Numbered from the stretch's first letter, positions 27,910-35,741 are shown. The stretch: 64,000 bases of DNA from Vulcanimicrobiota bacterium (GCA_963812135.1 CAWETU010000001.1:1888001-1952000); one strand, 5' to 3'. Translations and numbers: made by a program. The notes: generated from the sequence alone by a model not told the origin.

Positions 27910-28333
27910 GCGCGGCAAGGTCTCTTTCAACGAATGAGCTATACCTGTGCAAAACCCAAAGACCCCAAACCGCTACGGCTTCCCAAAGAACAGCGGCAGC
28001 GATCAGGGCAGCCGGGTGCGCGGCTGCAATCGGAATGTCCAGAATGCTCCACGTCGGTTGCACTCTACCACCGAAGACGATCAACAAAGCTAGTGGGGTG
28101 GCGATCGCGCTGATCCACGTGAAAACCCGAGCCCATGTCCACCAGCGCCGCTCTCCCCGAATGAGCCCGGGTCCGATCCACAAACTCAACACACCGAAAT
28201 CGAGATTGATATGCAGGATGAACGCGCCGACTAAAATGTGAAGAACGGAGACAACTCCTCCAAGAAAAAAGAGCACCCCAAGAACATACACCGGCCTAGG
28301 CACATCGTCTTGGGGGAGCACTCTAAGCGTCAT
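27899..28333 (-). CDS. Hypothetical small polytopic membrane protein
   Basis: 144 aa with about four hydrophobic segments; overlaps both neighbours by 11 bp; looks more AT-rich than its flanks. Confidence 0.6.
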   Translation of the reverse strand: MTLRVLPQDDVPRPVYVLGVLFFLGGVVSVLHILVGAFILHINLDFGVLSLWIGPGLIRGERRWWTWARVFTWISAIATPLALLIVFGGRVQPTWSILDIPIAAAHPAALIAAAVLWEAVAVWGLWVLHRYSSFVERDLAAHAT

Positions 28334-28886
28334 GCGCCGAATCCTCCGGGTACGGATCGATCACCGGCAGACGCGGCGCGTCTTTCGGGTACGTGTCCGG
28401 GTTCTTCGCCTCCCAGATGAGCGCTCGCGACACCATGTACTCGAAATTGTCGTACGCGGTCGGCCCCCGTTTGCGGCGGATGATCGCGATCACGGGCATC
28501 ATCCTGTTCCAGGCTGCGGTTGCCGTCCAACCCCCGCTCTCCATGAAGGCCCGTTCCTCGAAGGAGCCCAACTTGAACATCCCGCCAAGCGACTCCCAGA
28601 AGTCGATATAGTTGATTTCCGGATACGCGACGCGATCGATCGGCTGGCGCATCAACCCCGCGCGGTACGCAGGGTCCTCAAGCTTCTTCTCGATCTCGCC
28701 GCTGAAGACGTACGCTTGCAGCTTCCTCGCTTCGGGGCCGGCCCATTTGTCGAAAAGGCCCAGCGTGGCGTTAATCTGATTGCCCGAGCGCATGTGCCGC
28801 AGCTGGATGACCGCCGCGATCGCTGACGCCGCGATCACAACGAGCGTGCCGAAGGTCGAAAGTGCGGAAAGTTCTTCCCAGCTCAT
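28323..28886 (-). CDS. Membrane-anchored DUF4760-like protein, paralog 3
   Basis: MSWEELS..ASAIAAVIQLRHMRSGNQ..FWESLG..YDNFEYMVSR..YPKD. Confidence 0.7.
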   Translation of the reverse strand: MSWEELSALSTFGTLVVIAASAIAAVIQLRHMRSGNQINATLGLFDKWAGPEARKLQAYVFSGEIEKKLEDPAYRAGLMRQPIDRVAYPEINYIDFWESLGGMFKLGSFEERAFMESGGWTATAAWNRMMPVIAIIRRKRGPTAYDNFEYMVSRALIWEAKNPDTYPKDAPRLPVIDPYPEDSAHDA

Positions 28887-29470
28887 CCTTGAGCCTCACC
28901 GACCGTCGCGCGGCCCTCCGCGGCGGTCGCGGCGCCGACATCCGGCAGCGGTAGCCGCTGCATGGTCGACGGGAACGAGCCCTGCGGATGGCGCCGCGTG
29001 AACTCCCTCCCGCGCGCGGCGAGGTATTCGAAGTTCTCCCAGAGCGCGGGGCCGCGCGCCCGGCGCATCAAAGCGACCGGCACGCCGAGGCGATCCCAAT
29101 CGTTACTCACCACCCCCGACGCGAGGTCGAGAAACGGATCCTCCTGGATGAGGCCGTGTTTGACCATGGTGCCGACCTGCTCCCACCAGGTGATGATTCG
29201 AACCTCGGGATGAACCGACCAGTCATTGGCCGCTGTGTCCAGCGATTGCGAATAGCCCGGTTCTTGTACTCGTTTGGCGAGCTCTACCCGCACGTAATGG
29301 GCAGCCGCGCGCATCGCGTCATCATCCCACATCTCGTTGAGCTTGAGCATCGCCTGCAATTGATTGCTCGCCTGTAGATGCCGCAGCTGGACGAGGGCTG
29401 CGATCGCAGTCGCCGTGATGACCACGAACGTGCCGACTGCGGCCAGCGTGTTGATCGTCTCTATCGGCAT
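28883..29470 (-). CDS. Membrane-anchored DUF4760-like protein, paralog 4
   Basis: MPIETIN..ATAIAALVQLRHLQASNQ..WWEQVG..WENFEYLAAR..FPST; start chosen by alignment with the paralogs. Confidence 0.7.
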   Translation of the reverse strand: MPIETINTLAAVGTFVVITATAIAALVQLRHLQASNQLQAMLKLNEMWDDDAMRAAAHYVRVELAKRVQEPGYSQSLDTAANDWSVHPEVRIITWWEQVGTMVKHGLIQEDPFLDLASGVVSNDWDRLGVPVALMRRARGPALWENFEYLAARGREFTRRHPQGSFPSTMQRLPLPDVGAATAAEGRATVGEAQG

Positions 29471-29570
29471 CAGCGCCCTCATCAAGAGAATGGCCTCGAG
29501 CATTCGCTCGAGGCCTTCACCCGAGCTGTCGCTCGGGTCCTACCTTCAGCCGTGGCTGGGGTCCCACATG

Positions 29571-32072
29571 CTAGTTGTTTGCGGGACCTGTCTCCGTCGG
29601 TTCGGGCACCGGTGGTTTGAGCGGCTCGCCGATCTTGCGGAACGTCGACTTGCCCTCTTCAGCGTCGAGCAAGATGTGGTCGCCGACCTTGAACGTGCCG
29701 CGCAGCAGCTCTTCGGACAGCGGGTCTTCGACTAGCCGGCCGATCGCGCGCCGCAGCGGGCGGGCGCCGAACGCCGGATCCCAACCCTCTTTGGCGATCA
29801 GCTCGCGCGCCGCTTCGGTCGCTTCGAGCGTCATGTGCTGGTTCTCCAGCTCCTTGACGACCTTGGCGAGCTCGAGCGTGACGATCTGCTTGATCTGGTC
29901 CATGTCGAGCGAGTGGAAGACCACGACTTCGTCGACGCGGTTGAGGAACTCCGGCCGGAAGATGTGTTTGATCTCTTCCAGTATCTTGTTCTTCATGCGC
30001 TCGTAGCGCACCGCCGACGAGCCTTCTTCCTTCACCGGCCGGAAACCGATGTCGCTGCTCTTCTGCAGTCCCATCGCGCCGATGTTGCTCGTCATGATGA
30101 TGACCGTGTTTTTGAAGTCGACCGCGCGGCCTTGCGAGTCGGTGAGCCGGCCGTCTTCGAGCACCTGCAGCAGCAGGTTGAACACGTCCGGATGCGCCTT
30201 CTCGATCTCGTCGAGCAGCACGACCGCGTAGGGGCGACGGCGCACCGCTTCGGTGAGCTGTCCGCCTTCTTCGTAGCCGACGTAGCCGGGCGGCGCGCCG
30301 ACCAGCCGCGAGACCGAATATTTCTCCATGTACTCGGACATGTCGATGCGGATCATCGAATCGGCGTCGTCGAACATGAACTCGGCAAGTGTGCGAGCGA
30401 GCTCGGTCTTGCCGACGCCGGTCGGACCCAAGAAGATGAACGAGCCGATCGGCCGCTTCGGATTCTTCAAGCCAGCCCGGGCGCGCCGGATGGCGCGCGA
30501 GATGACTTTGATCGCTTCGTCTTGGCCGATGATGCGCTTGTGCAACGCTTGGTCCATGTTGAGCAGCTTGGAGGTCTCTTCTTCTTTGAGCCTGCTGACC
30601 GGAATGCGCGTCCAGGTTGAGACGATGTGCGCGATCTCCTCGGGGCCGACCGTGTTGGTCTTCTCGCCCTTGGCGTTGCGCTTCTCGATCCACTCGGCTT
30701 CCATGGTCGCCTTCTTGGCGCGCATCTTCTCCTCGCGGTCGCGGATCTGCGCCGCGCGCTCGAATTCTTGCGCCTTGATGGCGGCTTCTTTCTCAGCCTT
30801 GACCTTGCGGATCTCGGTCTCGACCTCGCGGATCTCCGGCGGCAACGAGGTTGATTGCAGCCGCACGCGCGATGCCGCTTCGTCCATCAGGTCGACGGCT
30901 TTGTCGGGCAGGAAGCGATCGGAGATGTAGCGCGCCGACAGCCGTGCCGCGGCTTCGAGCGCTTCATCTGAGATCTTGACGCGATGGTGCGCTTCGTAGC
31001 GGTCGCGCAGGCCCTTGAGGATCTCGACGGTCTCGTCGATCGACGGCTCGCCGACCATGATCGATTGGAAGCGGCGCTCGAGCGCTGAATCCTTCTCGAT
31101 GTGCTTGCGGAACTCGTTGAGCGTCGTCGCGCCGATGCACTGCAGCTCGCCGCGTGCGAGCGCCGGTTTGATGATGTTGCTCGCGTCGATCGCGCCTTCG
31201 GCGGCACCCGCCCCGACGAGCGTGTGGAGCTCGTCGATGAACAGGATGATCTCGCCGCTCGCGCCGCGGATCTCATCCATGACGCGCTTCATGCGCTCTT
31301 CGAACTCGCCGCGATACTTCGTGCCGGCCACCAGGCCCGCAAGATCGAGCGTGATGACGCGTTTGTCGCGCAGCAGCTCGGGCACGTCGCCGTTGATGAC
31401 GCGCTGTGCCAAGCCTTCGGCGATCGCCGTCTTGCCGACGCCGGGCTCACCGATGAGCGCCGGGTTGTTCTTGGTGCGCCGCGAGAGGATCTGCACGACG
31501 CGTTCGATCTCGGTGTTGCGGCCGATGACCGGATCGAGCTTGCCCTCGCGGGCGAGCTGCGTGAGGTCGCGGCCGTACGCGTCGAGCGTCGGCGTCTTGC
31601 TCTTGCCTTTGGACGCGGTCTGCGTCTGCGTCTCGGCGCCCAGCAACGAGGTCGTCTGCACGCGCACTTTGGCGGGGTCGACGCCCAGGTTGGTGAGCAC
31701 GCGCGCGGCAACGCCTTCGCCTTCGCGGATCAAGCCGAGCAGCAAATGCTCCGTGCCGATGTAGTTGTGGTTGAGCTGGCGCGCTTCTTCAAAAGCCAGT
31801 TCGATGACGCGCTTGGCCCTGGGGGTGAACACCATCTCCTGTTGCACGGTCTGGCCGCCGCGCCCGACGATCGCCTCGACTTCGGCCCGAACCTTCGCCA
31901 GGTTGACTCCTAAAGTTTCCAACACTTTGGCGGCAAGGCTCTCGCCTTCGCTGATGATGCCGAGCAGGATGTGTTCCGTTCCGATGTAGTTGTTGCCGAG
32001 CCGCTGCGCCTCTTCTTGCGCCAGCACGATGCTGCGGCGCGCGCGCTCGGTGAACGGTTCCCACATTGACAT
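29571..32072 (-). CDS. clpC: ATP-dependent Clp protease ATPase subunit ClpC
   Basis: Two Clp-N repeats (YIGTEH), [11 protein letters not shown]-like middle coiled coil, GPTGVGKT, ClpP-docking IGF loop (DIGF), FGARPLRR. Confidence 0.96.
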
Positions 32073-32229
32073 TACTTTATCTATCTCCACCGGCCGCGCA
32101 ATGGCAGCCGCTCCTTTGAATGGTGTACAGGTGTTCGACGTGGCGTGGGGTTGTGCTTCTTTCCAATACCTAAACGTTTTATCGGTATCTTTCGTGTCCG
32201 GGTTCGTGTTTGGGCCTGAAAAAAAGAGA

Positions 32230-32414
32230 AAGCCCCAAGGGCTCTCGGTCGTCGCAGTACTGGAGCCCGCCGTAAGTGGCGGGAGTCTTATCGGCTTTCG
32301 CTTGATCAGGTCTTTGCCTAATCGCTACGCCCGGGTTACACAATCCGGATGCGGTCGGTGCTCACGCCGTCCGCTCGCCGATCGGTACGCTATAGAGCAA
32401 GCCCCCTGAGGCTT
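32230..32414 (-). ncRNA. Candidate ~185-nt structured non-coding RNA, family unassigned (6S-sized)
   Basis: 5' AAGCCUCAGGGGGCU pairs with 3' AGCCCUUGGGGCUU; four internal hairpins; G-U wobbles work only on the minus strand; upstream promoter; U7 tract at 32225-32219. Confidence 0.7.
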
Positions 32415-32420
32415 AAGCGC

Positions 32421-32449
32421 ATGATACGCCTGCACTCCTGACGTGTCAA
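32421..32449 (-). promoter_or_regulatory. Sigma70-type promoter TTGACA-N17-TATCAT
   Basis: On the + strand tgtcaa is at 32444-32449 and atgata at 32421-32426, with a 17-nt spacer. Predicted +1 near 32414 coincides with the 5' end of the RNA stem. Confidence 0.85.
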
Positions 32450-32496
32450 GGCGGTTTGGCACCGGAAATTTGAGAACTTTTCGAGAAGACTTGCGC

Positions 32497-33981
32497 ATGA
32501 CGGAATCCCGGCACTTCGTCGCGATCGGTTTGGGTTCGAATCTCGGCGACCGGCAGAGCAATCTCGCGCGCGCGCTCCATCTGCTGCGCGAAGTTATCCA
32601 CATCGAGCGCATCTCGCCTGTGTATGAGACCAAACCCGTCGGCTTCGCCGATCAGCCGGATTTCCTGAATTGCGCGTGCACTGGTCGAACGGCCCTTGGG
32701 CCGCGCGAGCTGCGGGCCGCGCTCGCCTCGATCGAGCGACGAGTCGGCCGCGCGACCTCCTTCCCGATGGGGCCGCGCGCAATCGATCTCGACATCCTGC
32801 TGTACGACGATCTTGTGATGCGCGACGAAGATCTGACCATTCCGCATCCGCGCATGCGCGAACGCGCCTTCGTGCTTGCGCCGCTGCGCGATATCGCACC
32901 TGACGCCGTCGAACCGGTATCGGGCAAGAGCATCCGCGACCTCGCCGCCGCTGCCGACGCGTCCGGGGTGCGCCGGCTCGACGGCGACCTCGTGGCGCGC
33001 ATCCGCCGCGATGTGCAAGAGATGCAGCCGCACGTGCCGTTGTCGCTCAATCGCGCCGGCGTGACCGGTGTGAAGACGACGATCGCGTTGAACCTGCCCG
33101 CCGGACGCCAAAGCGCGATCGCGACGCTCGACATCTTCGCCGATCTCGATGCGGCGCACAGCGGCGTCCACATGTCGCGCTTCTCGCAGGATCTGGAGGA
33201 CGCGCTCTCCGACATCGCCGGTCATTCGGAGGGCGGCGTCGAGTCGTTAGCGCTGGCAGTGGCTCAGCGCGTCGTGGCAAGTCAGCGAGCGGAGATCGCG
33301 CACGTCGATCTGCGCGCGGAGTTCGCGTTGCCGCGCCACACGCCCGCGAGCGGCATCGCCACCAACGAGTATTACACGGTGCTGGCAAAGGCGGTCGCGG
33401 GACCCGATTTCGCGCGCAGCCTCTTTGGTGTCGAAGCCCAAGGAATCACCGCGTGCCCGTGCGCGCAGACGATGGTCGCTGAGAGCTCTGCGGAGCGGCT
33501 CGCGGCTGACGGCTTCTCGCCCGACCAGATCGCGCGCATTCTCGCCTCGCTGCCGATCGCCACGCACAATCAGCGCGGCCGCGGCACGCTGCTGATCGGC
33601 GGCACCACGGCGCTGGATCTTCCTGCGATGGTCGCGATCGTCGAGCAGTCAATGTCTTCCGAGACGTACGACCTCCTCAAGCGCCCGGACGAGCTTTTCG
33701 TGGTCAACAAAGCCCACTCGGCGCCGCGCTTCGTCGAGGACGTCGTGCGCGAGATACTGCGCTATGCCAACGAGGCACTTGCCGCCGCTCCTGAAAGCGC
33801 ATTCGTGCTCGCCCGTCAGCTGAACTACGAGAGCATCCATAAGCACGACGCGGTTGCGGAGTCGTGCGCGCTGGTCGGGGAATTGCGTCGCGAGCTGGCC
33901 GGCGAAACGGGGGTGCGCCACACGTCCCTCGAAGAATGGCTGTACCCGCGTGGTGTAGACGCATCGAAATCGAGTAAGTAA
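32497..33981 (+). CDS. folK: Fusion of HPPK (FolK) and GTP cyclohydrolase of the FolE2/MptA family
   Basis: N-terminal GLGSNLGDR, QPDFLN, GPRAIDLDIL, IPHPRMRERAFVL; C-terminal GVHMSRF, GITACPCA, ATHNQRG, LKRPDE, PRFVED, ESIHKHD; one uninterrupted ORF. Confidence 0.9.
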   Translation: MTESRHFVAIGLGSNLGDRQSNLARALHLLREVIHIERISPVYETKPVGFADQPDFLNCACTGRTALGPRELRAALASIERRVGRATSFPMGPRAIDLDILLYDDLVMRDEDLTIPHPRMRERAFVLAPLRDIAPDAVEPVSGKSIRDLAAAADASGVRRLDGDLVARIRRDVQEMQPHVPLSLNRAGVTGVKTTIALNLPAGRQSAIATLDIFADLDAAHSGVHMSRFSQDLEDALSDIAGHSEGGVESLALAVAQRVVASQRAEIAHVDLRAEFALPRHTPASGIATNEYYTVLAKAVAGPDFARSLFGVEAQGITACPCAQTMVAESSAERLAADGFSPDQIARILASLPIATHNQRGRGTLLIGGTTALDLPAMVAIVEQSMSSETYDLLKRPDELFVVNKAHSAPRFVEDVVREILRYANEALAAAPESAFVLARQLNYESIHKHDAVAESCALVGELRRELAGETGVRHTSLEEWLYPRGVDASKSSK

Positions 33982-33982
33982 T

Positions 33983-35741
33983 ATGTGGGATTGGGAACGC
34001 GCTTCTGTTCCCTACCGGCCGATCTACCGGCGCCGGCTCCTGCGGCGTCGCTTCCTCACCGTGCTCCTTGCGGCCGCGATCGCCATCCCCTACTACCTCT
34101 ACCATCACCATCAGGCCACCCAGTCGATCGGCGAGCGGATCTTCGATGAGGTGACTTCGACGGTCTCCGTGCGGTATTTCGACGCGTCTTACCACGGCGT
34201 CGCGTGGCAAGCGGTGGCAGAACACTATCGGCCGCTGATCGCGAACGCGCCGACGACCCAAGCGCGTTATGCGGCGCTGCGCTCCATGCTCGCGCAATTG
34301 CACGACAGCCACACCGCGGTGTATTCTCCGACCGATCTCGAGCCGCTGCGCGACCGCGAACCCGCATGCCGTGTTCGGGATGGCACCCGATGCTACGGTC
34401 AGCGAGCCGGCAGTGGACTGGAAAATCGTGCGACCTGGCGTCGGCTATCTGCGTCTCTCGTCATTTCCTGATTCGGTGCACAGCGTACTCGGCTGGGCGA
34501 TGGCAAGCGTCGGACACGAGCCCGCGCTCATCCTCGACCTGCGCGGCAATCCTGGTGGCCTGGTGGATTCGGTGGATGAAGTCGCCGGCATATTCTTGCC
34601 GCCGGGGACGTTGATCTCGACCGGCACGCGCCGCTACAACCTGTTCGGGTCGCAACGCTTCACGGCGACCGATAATGCTGGGTTCTCGTATCCAGGACGA
34701 CTTGTCGTGCTGATCGATAAGAACAGCCGCAGCGGCGCCGAGTCGCTTGCGCGCGCGCTGCAATACTATCATCGCGCGACGTTGGTGGGCACGCGCTCCG
34801 CGGGCAAGGTGTTGGGCGTCGATGCCGAGATGACGCTCGCCGACGGCGGGCTATTGCGCGTCGCGACGCTGGACATGCACGCACCTGACGGTCAGCGCCT
34901 CGAAGGCGCGGGTGTTCACCCGAATGTTCTTGTGAGCGAGCCGGCACACCAGCTCAGCACAGCGATCGTTATCGCAAACCCTGGTCCCGCGGCTTCTCCA
35001 CCCTCCCCCACGTCGCCGTGCCCTCTTTCGGTCTCCGACTTCAGCGTCGCGTCGCTGGGGAAGCCACAAGGGTTTGTCGAGTACCGGGTGGGCGTTCGCA
35101 ATTCTGCGCCGGTGCCAATCGCAACGAAGTTAGACGTTTACAACGATGCGCTCGTCCAGGTCGGAACGGTTATCGTCTCGGAGGTTGACTCGGCGGCGGA
35201 TGCGATCCTATTTCGTTGGCGCGATAGGAGCCTGGTGCGCGTCGCTCTATCCCAAGTGGAAGCGAACGGCGGGAAGATCCTCTGCCAGCCCACTTCTTCA
35301 GTCGCTCTTGCTCCGCGCTTATCGCTTATTGCAGACGCGCATCGTAAACGCAGCTATACTGGTCCCCGCGGAGAGCCGATGCCGAAAGACATTCGCGACG
35401 CTGCAGATCAGTTTTGGCCGGAATTTGATGATTCGTCCGTAGTGGATACGTCACCGACCATCGGCTCGACGCTCCGTGATGCAAGGCTGTCGTTTGTCTC
35501 CCCCCTCGACTACCCGTACGAAGCCCACACCACCGGCGAGCAAGGTTCGGTACTCGTGGCTGTAATCGTGGGCTCGGGAGGCAACCTGGTCGGCACATCA
35601 GTCTTGAAGACGTCGGGGTTCCCCATCCTCGATGCTGCCGCGCTGGCCTCTGCACGGGGCAGCCGCTACACAGAGCCTGAAATCAACGGTAAGCCCGCCA
35701 ATCGGGCTTATCTTGTTGATTTCTATTTCGAGCTCGAGTAG
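33983..35741 (+). CDS. S41 (CtpA-like) peptidase with C-terminal TonB_C-like domain; frameshift ~34370
   Basis: N-terminal TM, YFD...L.DSHT, GYLRLSSF, LDLRGNPGG, SRSGAE, GTRSAGK, GVHPNV; then YP.EA..GEQGSVLV..SGFPILDAAAL. Confidence 0.75.

Follow-up and report, generated by a model that had tools for sequence, protein, structure and literature searches.

The raiA motif RNA and other orphan 'ornate' non-coding RNAs (ncRNAs) of bacteria are restricted to particular lineages, measure about 200 nucleotides (nt), fold into several helices and carry many invariant junction nucleotides. Ms1 RNA of Actinobacteria (about 300 nt) is lineage-specific as well and abundant; it binds core RNA polymerase and can coexist with 6S RNA. 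Here we describe an RNA gene located between clpC and a folK-folE2 fusion gene in a stretch of 64,000 nt from a Vulcanimicrobiota bacterium (GCA_963812135.1, CAWETU010000001.1:1888001-1952000). The whole stretch is referred to as the window; positions are counted from its first nucleotide, and the RNA is encoded on the minus strand. The gene specifies a folded RNA of about 190 nt and has its own promoter and terminator. The data support its assignment to a new RNA family without a match in Rfam; our claim to novelty concerns the family. Among the genomes searched, the family is confined to the Eremiobacteraceae of the phylum Eremiobacterota/Vulcanimicrobiota (Candidatus Eremiobacteraceae within the phylum Vulcanimicrobiota in the NCBI taxonomy). 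The Eremiobacterota, formerly WPS-2, are a widespread and almost entirely uncultured phylum of soil and peat. To our knowledge, nothing is known about their RNA biology, and the portions of the literature on Eremiobacterota ncRNA and on clpC-linked structured RNAs that a full-text search brought up held no account of such an RNA. An earlier interpretation of the window, made from the sequence alone and called the sequence-only reading here, had proposed an unassigned RNA of about 185 nt at this site and had considered a divergent 6S RNA, a new ncRNA class or an attenuating clpC leader.

The promoter on the minus strand, TTGACA-N17-TATCAT (32449..32421), matches the consensus at 11 of 12 positions in a promoter scan of the window. 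The sigma-70-type scan gave one site compared with 0.3 ± 0.6 sites in shuffled sequences. The promoter is the one that the sequence-only reading had picked, with the transcription start (+1) near 32414, 7 nt past the −10 hexamer. The ends of the transcript were deduced from the promoter and terminator signals, which give an RNA of approximately 185-190 nt. A covariance model (R1; 184 positions, 53 pairs, built from 30 family copies) matches the window copy at 32230-32415 with 163 bits. The neighbours had been named as clpC and folK; Pfam confirmed clpC and identified the second gene as a folK-folE2 fusion. The elements of the locus are as follows.

32497..33981, plus strand: folK-folE2 fusion, divergent (Pfam HPPK plus GCHY-1)
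32444..32449, minus strand: −35 hexamer TTGACA from the promoter scan, invariant in 30/30 sequences of alignment A1
32421..32426, minus strand: −10 hexamer TATCAT, spacer of 17 nt; relatives keep TATCAT, TATTAT or TATGAT
32219..32414, minus strand: predicted RNA transcript, 5' end near 32414 and 3' end inside the U-run 32231-32219
32219..32231, minus strand: U-rich tail UUUCUCUUUUUUU (terminator tail), UUUCUC-U7 after the closing helix
32073..32218, minus strand: spacer to clpC, outside the RNA, with the motif TCGAAC at 32133-32138
29571..32072, minus strand: clpC (Pfam Clp_N twice, AAA, AAA_lid_9, UVR, AAA_2 and ClpB_D2-small)

The RNA, its promoter and its placement between folK-folE2 and clpC recur in 31/31 other genomes of the family, which cover ten genera. 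The 59 matches to the RNA collapse to 48 distinct sequences. The pattern TTGAC[AT]-N16-18-TA[TC]N[AT]T is present in 43 of these 48 copies and, with one or two changes, in four more; a promoter thus stands at the equivalent position in 47/47 copies having upstream sequence, the one remaining copy being cut by a contig end. The RNA lies upstream of clpC on the same strand in 30/30 genomes and in 28/28 metagenome contigs. The folK-folE2 fusion is the divergent neighbour at 30/30 family loci and is found away from clpC in five genomes of the sister family. HPPK (FolK) and the type I GTP cyclohydrolase domain FolE2 are fused in a single open reading frame (ORF; 32497-33981, plus strand).

The comparison with Rfam 15 (4227 models, including riboswitches, the RNA of the signal recognition particle (SRP), RNase P RNA, transfer-messenger RNA (tmRNA) and Y RNAs) gave no match at the gathering score in the window, in line with the sequence-only reading, which had seen no SRP, tmRNA, RNase P or common riboswitch motif. 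At E values up to 10, the region 32000-32600 gave only sX7 (15.8 bits compared with a cut-off of 55, E 1.8), and six other family members gave no Rfam match at E up to 1. The Rfam search, which could have removed the novelty, therefore returned no strong match to a known family. The 6S model RF00013 matched neither in the window at its gathering score nor in 32000-32600 at E up to 10. 6S RNA (84.6 bits), SRP RNA (66.7 bits), RNase P RNA (256.4 bits) and tmRNA (149.3 bits) were detected elsewhere in the genome, and these four identities were rejected for the RNA upstream of clpC on the ground that all four are encoded there.

The distribution was determined by BLAST and with model R1 in the Eremiobacteraceae (family f1, ten genera), its sister family f2 and further families. 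BLAST of a 261-base region against 60 relatives identified a single copy in 31/31 other f1 genomes; in two neighbouring families, 3/29 genomes gave matches of 19-29 nt only (E 0.003-0.01). In a class-wide sample of 151 genomes, all 31 f1 genomes and the window's own genome had R1 scores of 153-201 bits, 3/116 f2 genomes had scores of 22 bits, and three genomes of family f3 gave no match. Across the phylum, with 151 genomes sampled, R1 matches were obtained in 8/8 f1 genomes and in 0/142 genomes from 20 other families. Three of the f1 genomes (G010, G013 and G016) are unpublished; without them the count is 28/28, and G010 and G016 contribute rows to the alignments and to the model. The 22-bit hits in f2 and the short BLAST matches were rejected as chance homologues. 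All three f2 hits lie away from clpC and were taken as chance because none is near this gene; the one that was checked for surrounding frames is located inside a long permease-like or membrane-protein-like reading frame, and the other two were aligned to the model only. When the full model was run on five clpC loci of f2, no score exceeded 9.5 bits; at these loci, the regions upstream of clpC are unrelated, and folK is missing from them. Scanning one genome per species for the sequence pattern returned 23 loci, all repeating sequences already in the set. The same kind of scan on metagenome contigs returned 29 loci, comprising 28 true members and one chance match (L101).

The overall fold comprises a rod (P1-P3), a three-way junction of P3, P4 and P8, and a four-way junction of P4-P7. 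The single-sequence fold and the alignment fold agree on the closing helix, GCGUAC/GUACUGC, AUCGGC/GCCGAU around three hairpins, and the CCCGCC/GGCGGG hairpin. All helices that the sequence-only reading had named are present, and its by-eye fold was essentially right. From the 5' to the 3' end of the RNA, the elements are the following.

32405..32412, minus strand: 5' strand of P1, GCCUCAGG (family consensus GCCUCAAG), paired with 32232-32239
32394..32399, minus strand: 5' strand of P2, UGCUCU (consensus CGCUCC), paired with 32246-32251
32383..32390, minus strand: 5' strand of P3, GCGUACCG, paired with 32254-32262 with one bulge
32377..32382, minus strand: 5' strand of P4, AUCGGC, which closes the four-way junction, paired with 32290-32295
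32351..32374, minus strand: P5 hairpin; 23 distinct sequences among the 48 copies, all hairpins of 6-9 base pairs (bp); two-sided change in 2/5 scored pairs
32331..32348, minus strand: P6 hairpin; 13 distinct sequences, all hairpins of 4-7 bp; two-sided change in 2/6 pairs
32324..32330, minus strand: junction strand J6/7, GCGUAGC, invariant in 30/30 sequences and the same in all 48 distinct rows
32304..32323, minus strand: P7 hairpin; 37 distinct sequences, all hairpins of 5-9 bp; two-sided change in 3/6 pairs
32296..32303, minus strand: junction strand J7/4, AAGCGAAA, whose final five bases CGAAA are invariant
32290..32295, minus strand: 3' strand of P4, GCCGAU
32266..32283, minus strand: P8 hairpin on the 3' side of the P3/P4/P8 junction; 29 distinct sequences, all hairpins of 3-7 bp
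32254..32262, minus strand: 3' strand of P3, CAGUACUGC
32246..32251, minus strand: 3' strand of P2, CGACCG (consensus GGACCG)
32232..32239, minus strand: 3' strand of P1, CUUGGGGC (consensus CUUGAGGC), with the U-run directly after it

Six of the eight pairs in the P1 core never vary in the 48 distinct sequences and two vary on one side (U-A/U-G and A-U/G-U). The 3' strand of P1 can alternatively fold locally in the window's genus, as a stem of eight pairs (32246..32228) before the same U-run. P2 includes a conserved C-C mismatch, and both sides change in 3/7 of its pairs. For P3, two-sided changes were found in 5/8 pairs on the model-fitted alignment A4 and in 3/8 pairs on the MAFFT alignment A2. 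In P4, 5/6 pairs never vary and the remaining one is C-G/U-G. P8 shows two-sided change in 2/6 pairs; only 73.7% of its cells are paired in A4, because its 5' strand is one column off in some genera. When P5-P8 were folded alone, a hairpin formed in each of the 23, 13, 37 and 29 distinct variants, respectively. The invariant junction strands are GA, AU, GCGUAGC and CGAAA, and the strongest sequence constraint rests on these strands, on P1, on the P2 core with its C-C mismatch and on P4. P3 joins P4 directly, with neither an unpaired 5' strand nor a central bubble; the sequence-only reading had likewise described a junction and not the 6S rod with its central bubble, and the fold supported by covariation agrees. 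An all-against-all covariation scan for tertiary pairs returned only isolated, clade-linked column pairs and one possible extension of P1 by a single pair, and no pseudoknot is claimed.

Conservation and covariation among relatives, which the sequence-only reading had listed among its checks, were found in 31/31 other family genomes and in six helices. In A4, 94.5% of the cells are paired, and 17/53 pairs show two-sided change; shuffled alignments gave 9.6 ± 1.4 (0/500 reach 17), and slid partners gave 2-9. The structure-blind MAFFT alignment of 30 genomes led to a similar picture (94.0% paired; 12 pairs with two-sided change compared with 8.2 ± 1.2 in shuffles, 0/500 reaching 12; slid partners 2-8). 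Compensatory changes occur in 6/8 helices, namely P2, P3, P5, P6, P7 and P8. Across the 30 genomes, 84/186 positions are invariant, whereas the FolK-FolE2 proteins of these genomes are only 57-89% identical. The strand is fixed by the promoter, the terminator and the U-G pairs of P1 (U-A 36, U-G 12); G-U pairs had already set it in the sequence-only reading. R1 likewise scores 153-201 bits on the RNA strand and 21-34 bits wherever the reverse strand scored. As expected from that reading, which had seen no convincing ORF, the homologues conserve no common reading frame: the stretch is GC-rich and has several open frames, but which of them is open differs from one homologue to another. Their lengths range from 175 to 187 nt in steps that are not multiples of three, and their loops differ by 1-2 nt.

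Sequences of the RNA are present in RNA libraries. Between 7 and 24% of the sampled words of 31900-32520 were present in 24 public runs, which come from 20 studies and include 22 recorded as RNA. The expression evidence consists of contigs assembled from four metatranscriptomes of four studies; the other 20 runs were not used. Contigs with zero differences were obtained in 4/4 metatranscriptomes (32244-32403, 32248-32398, 32243-32393 and 32242-32366). They are 125-160 nt long, all lie within the predicted RNA and together span 32242-32403. The contig 32242-32366 has a word depth of 597, and adapter letters abut position 32242. A second contig from the same run (X4) has a depth of 537 and is identical only in the invariant core 32321-32354; since only this core is shared, it was assigned to the copy of a relative. 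At least two Eremiobacteraceae populations appear in this soil RNA library. A depth of several hundred limited to such a short stretch is hard to explain as DNA, though carry-over is formally possible. In none of the four runs did an exactly matching contig extend over the promoter, the spacer or the start of clpC, which is not evidence of absence. Among the options of the sequence-only reading, the new ncRNA class is the one that held: this copy and six other members have no Rfam match, the helices show compensatory changes, the RNA occurs in all 32 family genomes and it is found in RNA libraries.

The 3' end of the RNA is marked by UUUCUC-U7 at 32231-32219, the U-run that the sequence-only reading had placed there. 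A U-run straight after P1 is present in 27/48 distinct copies. Of the remaining 21 copies, 17 (17/48) carry a separate GC-rich hairpin with a U-run 16-53 nt downstream of P1, and 4/48 copies show only weak versions of a terminator, which is thus found in 44/48 copies overall. Genera without the U-run after P1 carry a dedicated hairpin and U-run instead, which suggests selection for ending the transcript at this point. In the window copy, both 3' folds, P1 and the local hairpin, precede the same U7, and a non-terminating conformer is not evident; inspection of the sequence revealed no mutually exclusive antiterminator.

The spacers between the RNA and clpC measure 119-280 nt and are mostly unconserved. 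TCGAAY occurs 52-102 nt before the clpC ATG in 24/30 genomes, and TGAACC-N16/17-CGTT in 12/30 genomes (genera g2, g5 and g9); the window spacer contains GAAGC-N14-CGTCGAAC (32133-32159, minus strand). The clpC leader has a conserved GC-rich hairpin of its own, of the type GCCGCC-loop-GGCGGC (approximately 32075-32112, minus strand). In several genera, an inverted repeat GAGUGCG...CGCACUC adjoins the AAGGAG ribosome-binding site of clpC, where it might act as an RNA thermometer or as the operator of a repressor. The start of the clpC ORF was called at GTG 32090. ATG 32072 is the likelier start, because the conserved N-terminus begins there in 30 genomes and 28 metagenome contigs. ClpC stands out by its unusually high conservation: its first 300-400 residues are 93-100% identical across the ten genera and 93-96% identical in the sister family, compared with the 57-89% of FolK-FolE2 next to it. 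At one sister-family locus (L090, genome G037), a short direct-repeat array with units like GAGCCTGTCGAAGGAT and CCTTCGACAAGCTCAGG is located approximately 250-450 nt upstream of clpC, at the site that the RNA occupies in the Eremiobacteraceae. Two candidate relationships of P1 were abandoned. Pairing of its 3' strand with the ribosome-binding region of clpC, seen by eye as complementarity in some genera, was dropped because it is absent in the window's genus and in several others. A possible likeness of P1, over six bases, to half-sites of the HspR operator (HAIR) was set aside.

Two features of the wider neighbourhood are recorded here. Directly downstream of clpC, two tandem DUF4760 genes (187 and 206 amino acids) occupy 28323-29503 on the minus strand. 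On the plus strand, a Tricorn_C1 ORF (33983-34471) overlaps, by about 200 nt and in another frame, an ORF with Peptidase_S41 and TonB_C domains (34269-35741); the two may be a single gene that contains a frameshift or has a wrongly assigned start. It is unusual for an S41 protease to carry a TonB domain at its C-terminus.

Taken as a whole, the locus is in our view somewhat better read as a stand-alone gene for a stable and seemingly abundant RNA that acts through its fold. This interpretation is preferred because a terminator is present in 44/48 copies and conserved promoter-like motifs precede clpC; promoter (47/47) and terminator are both conserved in position. Transcription would start at the near-consensus sigma-70-type promoter and would be ended by a constitutive intrinsic terminator, formed by P1 with the U-run or, in some genera, by the separate hairpin, and the RNA would thus be uncoupled from clpC. 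The 5' and 3' ends, which are predicted to pair almost flush, would protect the RNA from exonucleases. The flush, invariant closing helix and the frozen junction may be functional surfaces, through which the RNA would work in trans by binding a cellular partner. Judged by its anatomy, this partner would most likely be a protein, as for 6S, Ms1 or Y RNAs; a small ligand appears less likely, and simple base pairing is not favoured as a mode of action. More tentatively, we propose that the RNA is the founding member of an undescribed class, an abundant trans-acting structured RNA whose closing helix and junction bind a protein or possibly a metabolite.

Several observations weigh against this interpretation. 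The number of further pair types on the MAFFT alignment (29 compared with 31.1 in shuffles) was equalled by 474/500 shuffles. P1 and P4 never covary, as their sequences are fixed, and their pairing is backed by complementarity alone. The folding energy by itself is unremarkable and makes a weak case (−78 kcal/mol for the single sequence compared with −70.3 ± 4.5 for shuffles, z = −1.69, 10/200 shuffles equal or better); the RNA is lifted above chance by the conservation and covariation across the 48 distinct homologues. Assembled contigs cannot show the ends, strand, size or level of the RNA, or read-through into clpC. A fixed place upstream of clpC would also be expected of a leader, and the promoter scan predicted no sigma-70-type promoter in the spacer between the RNA and clpC in the window genome. 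The spacer motifs may resemble promoters of extracytoplasmic function (ECF) sigma factors of the SigH/SigR/SigE type, a putative assignment by consensus sequence. The case for partner binding is an argument from anatomy, and the partner is putative.

The main rival is a cis-acting clpC leader, that is, a riboswitch-like or protein-controlled attenuator whose terminator is read through on demand. The strong promoter would then serve clpC, and the signal sensed by the folded RNA would be a ligand, a protein or temperature. The constant position directly upstream of clpC on the same strand, at a distance of 119-280 nt in 30/30 genomes and 28/28 metagenome contigs, fits such a leader, as does the order of promoter, structured element with invariant junction and terminator, the usual layout of a riboswitch; the lack of a predicted sigma-70-type promoter in the window spacer points in the same direction. 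The position carries little weight, however, because the whole neighbourhood is syntenic within one family, and linkage to clpC is therefore indistinguishable from inheritance. No antiterminator mutually exclusive with the terminator was found, both 3' folds of the window copy preceding the U-run, and in 17/48 copies termination is assigned to a self-contained hairpin 16-53 nt past P1. The spacer that comes next, 100-250 nt with little conservation, contains promoter-like motifs whose distance to the ATG is fixed, and it has conserved hairpins of its own before the ribosome-binding site. A sequence-invariant P1 with flush closure is unusual for an expression platform, and no Rfam riboswitch matched. 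The proposal of an attenuating clpC leader in the sequence-only reading thus stands as far as the location is concerned, always upstream of clpC, and is weakened by the lack of an evident antiterminator and by the promoter-like motifs; we consider attenuation unlikely, though it is the rival to be taken most seriously. The RNA might instead be an Hfq-dependent small RNA (sRNA) that regulates mRNAs in trans, a conserved unpaired segment serving for base pairing. It has its own promoter, its terminal stem with U-run is the usual 3' end bound by Hfq, Hfq is encoded in the window genome (96.7 bits; CsrA and ProQ were not found there), and unpaired stretches such as GCGUAGC and CGAAA are invariant. 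These unpaired bases, however, lie inside the four-way junction and not in an exposed linker. The compensatory changes in the helices and the 84/186 invariant positions fit heavy structural constraint and agree poorly with seed pairing; constraint of this degree is typical of aptamers, ribozymes and the RNAs of ribonucleoproteins and not of sRNAs that pair through a seed. The sole complementarity noticed by eye, between the 3' strand of P1 and the ribosome-binding region of clpC, was not kept, and an sRNA of this kind seems improbable to us.

Two further explanations start from known protein-binding RNAs. A second, highly divergent 6S RNA, comparable to the pair 6S-1/6S-2 of Bacillus, would bind the RNA polymerase holoenzyme. 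Length (approximately 185-190 nt), paired ends, own promoter and apparent abundance are as in 6S RNA, and P8 on the 3' side of the middle region recalls a hairpin of some 6S RNAs. The structure largely refutes this explanation, since P3 and P4 leave no unpaired 5' strand for a bubble or template and the apex is a four-way junction; RF00013 does not match even at E up to 10. The canonical 6S RNA elsewhere in the genome (84.6 bits, 182 nt) shows no resemblance to the RNA upstream of clpC by eye. The divergent 6S RNA of the sequence-only reading was abandoned on these grounds, and we give a second 6S RNA very little credence. Still less probable is a bacterial Y RNA (YrlA-like) bound by Ro60/Rsr, which the conserved end stem with a cloverleaf-like branched module, the layout of Y RNAs, might suggest. 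TROVE/Ro60 domains (PF05731) gave no match in the window genome (G000), which is 98.4% complete, whereas the control genomes were positive; no Rfam Y RNA matched, and by eye no hairpin loop contains a T-loop-like sequence, so that a Y RNA is disfavoured.

If the stand-alone gene is the correct reading, the Eremiobacteraceae would possess a fifth 'housekeeping-like' stable RNA beside 6S RNA, SRP RNA, RNase P RNA and tmRNA, and its constant position next to clpC might point to a link with proteostasis. A central cellular role is likely, because nearly half of the bases are frozen over ten genera, the promoter is of consensus strength and the depth in metatranscriptomes is high. With about 185 nt and a well-supported fold, the RNA is tractable for structure determination, pull-downs and ligand screens. 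Were it a regulated clpC leader instead, it would represent a new class of sensor controlling a core protease-unfoldase.

Compared with the described systems, the RNA combines features of several. A terminating riboswitch or attenuator has the same succession of promoter, conserved multi-helix junction and intrinsic terminator before a gene; here, in contrast, the terminator is the closing helix or an unconnected hairpin, no antiterminator was found, and a long spacer with promoter-like motifs follows. With 6S RNA (ssrS, RF00013) it shares a length of about 185 nt, an own promoter, ends paired in a long interrupted helix and seeming abundance, but 6S RNA is a rod with a central bubble, whereas the RNA upstream of clpC consists of a four-way junction and a side hairpin on its rod. 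Y RNAs such as YrlA also have a conserved end-to-end stem bearing a branched module; they differ in that the window genome has no TROVE gene. Ms1 serves as a model for a partner-sequestering RNA, with no sequence or structural relation detected. The raiA-type RNAs are likewise lineage-restricted and multi-helical and lie beside a stress-related gene, as this RNA does; they belong to another phylum and have another helix layout, and the RNA upstream of clpC is far narrower in distribution, being a family of its own in Eremiobacteraceae with no match in Rfam.

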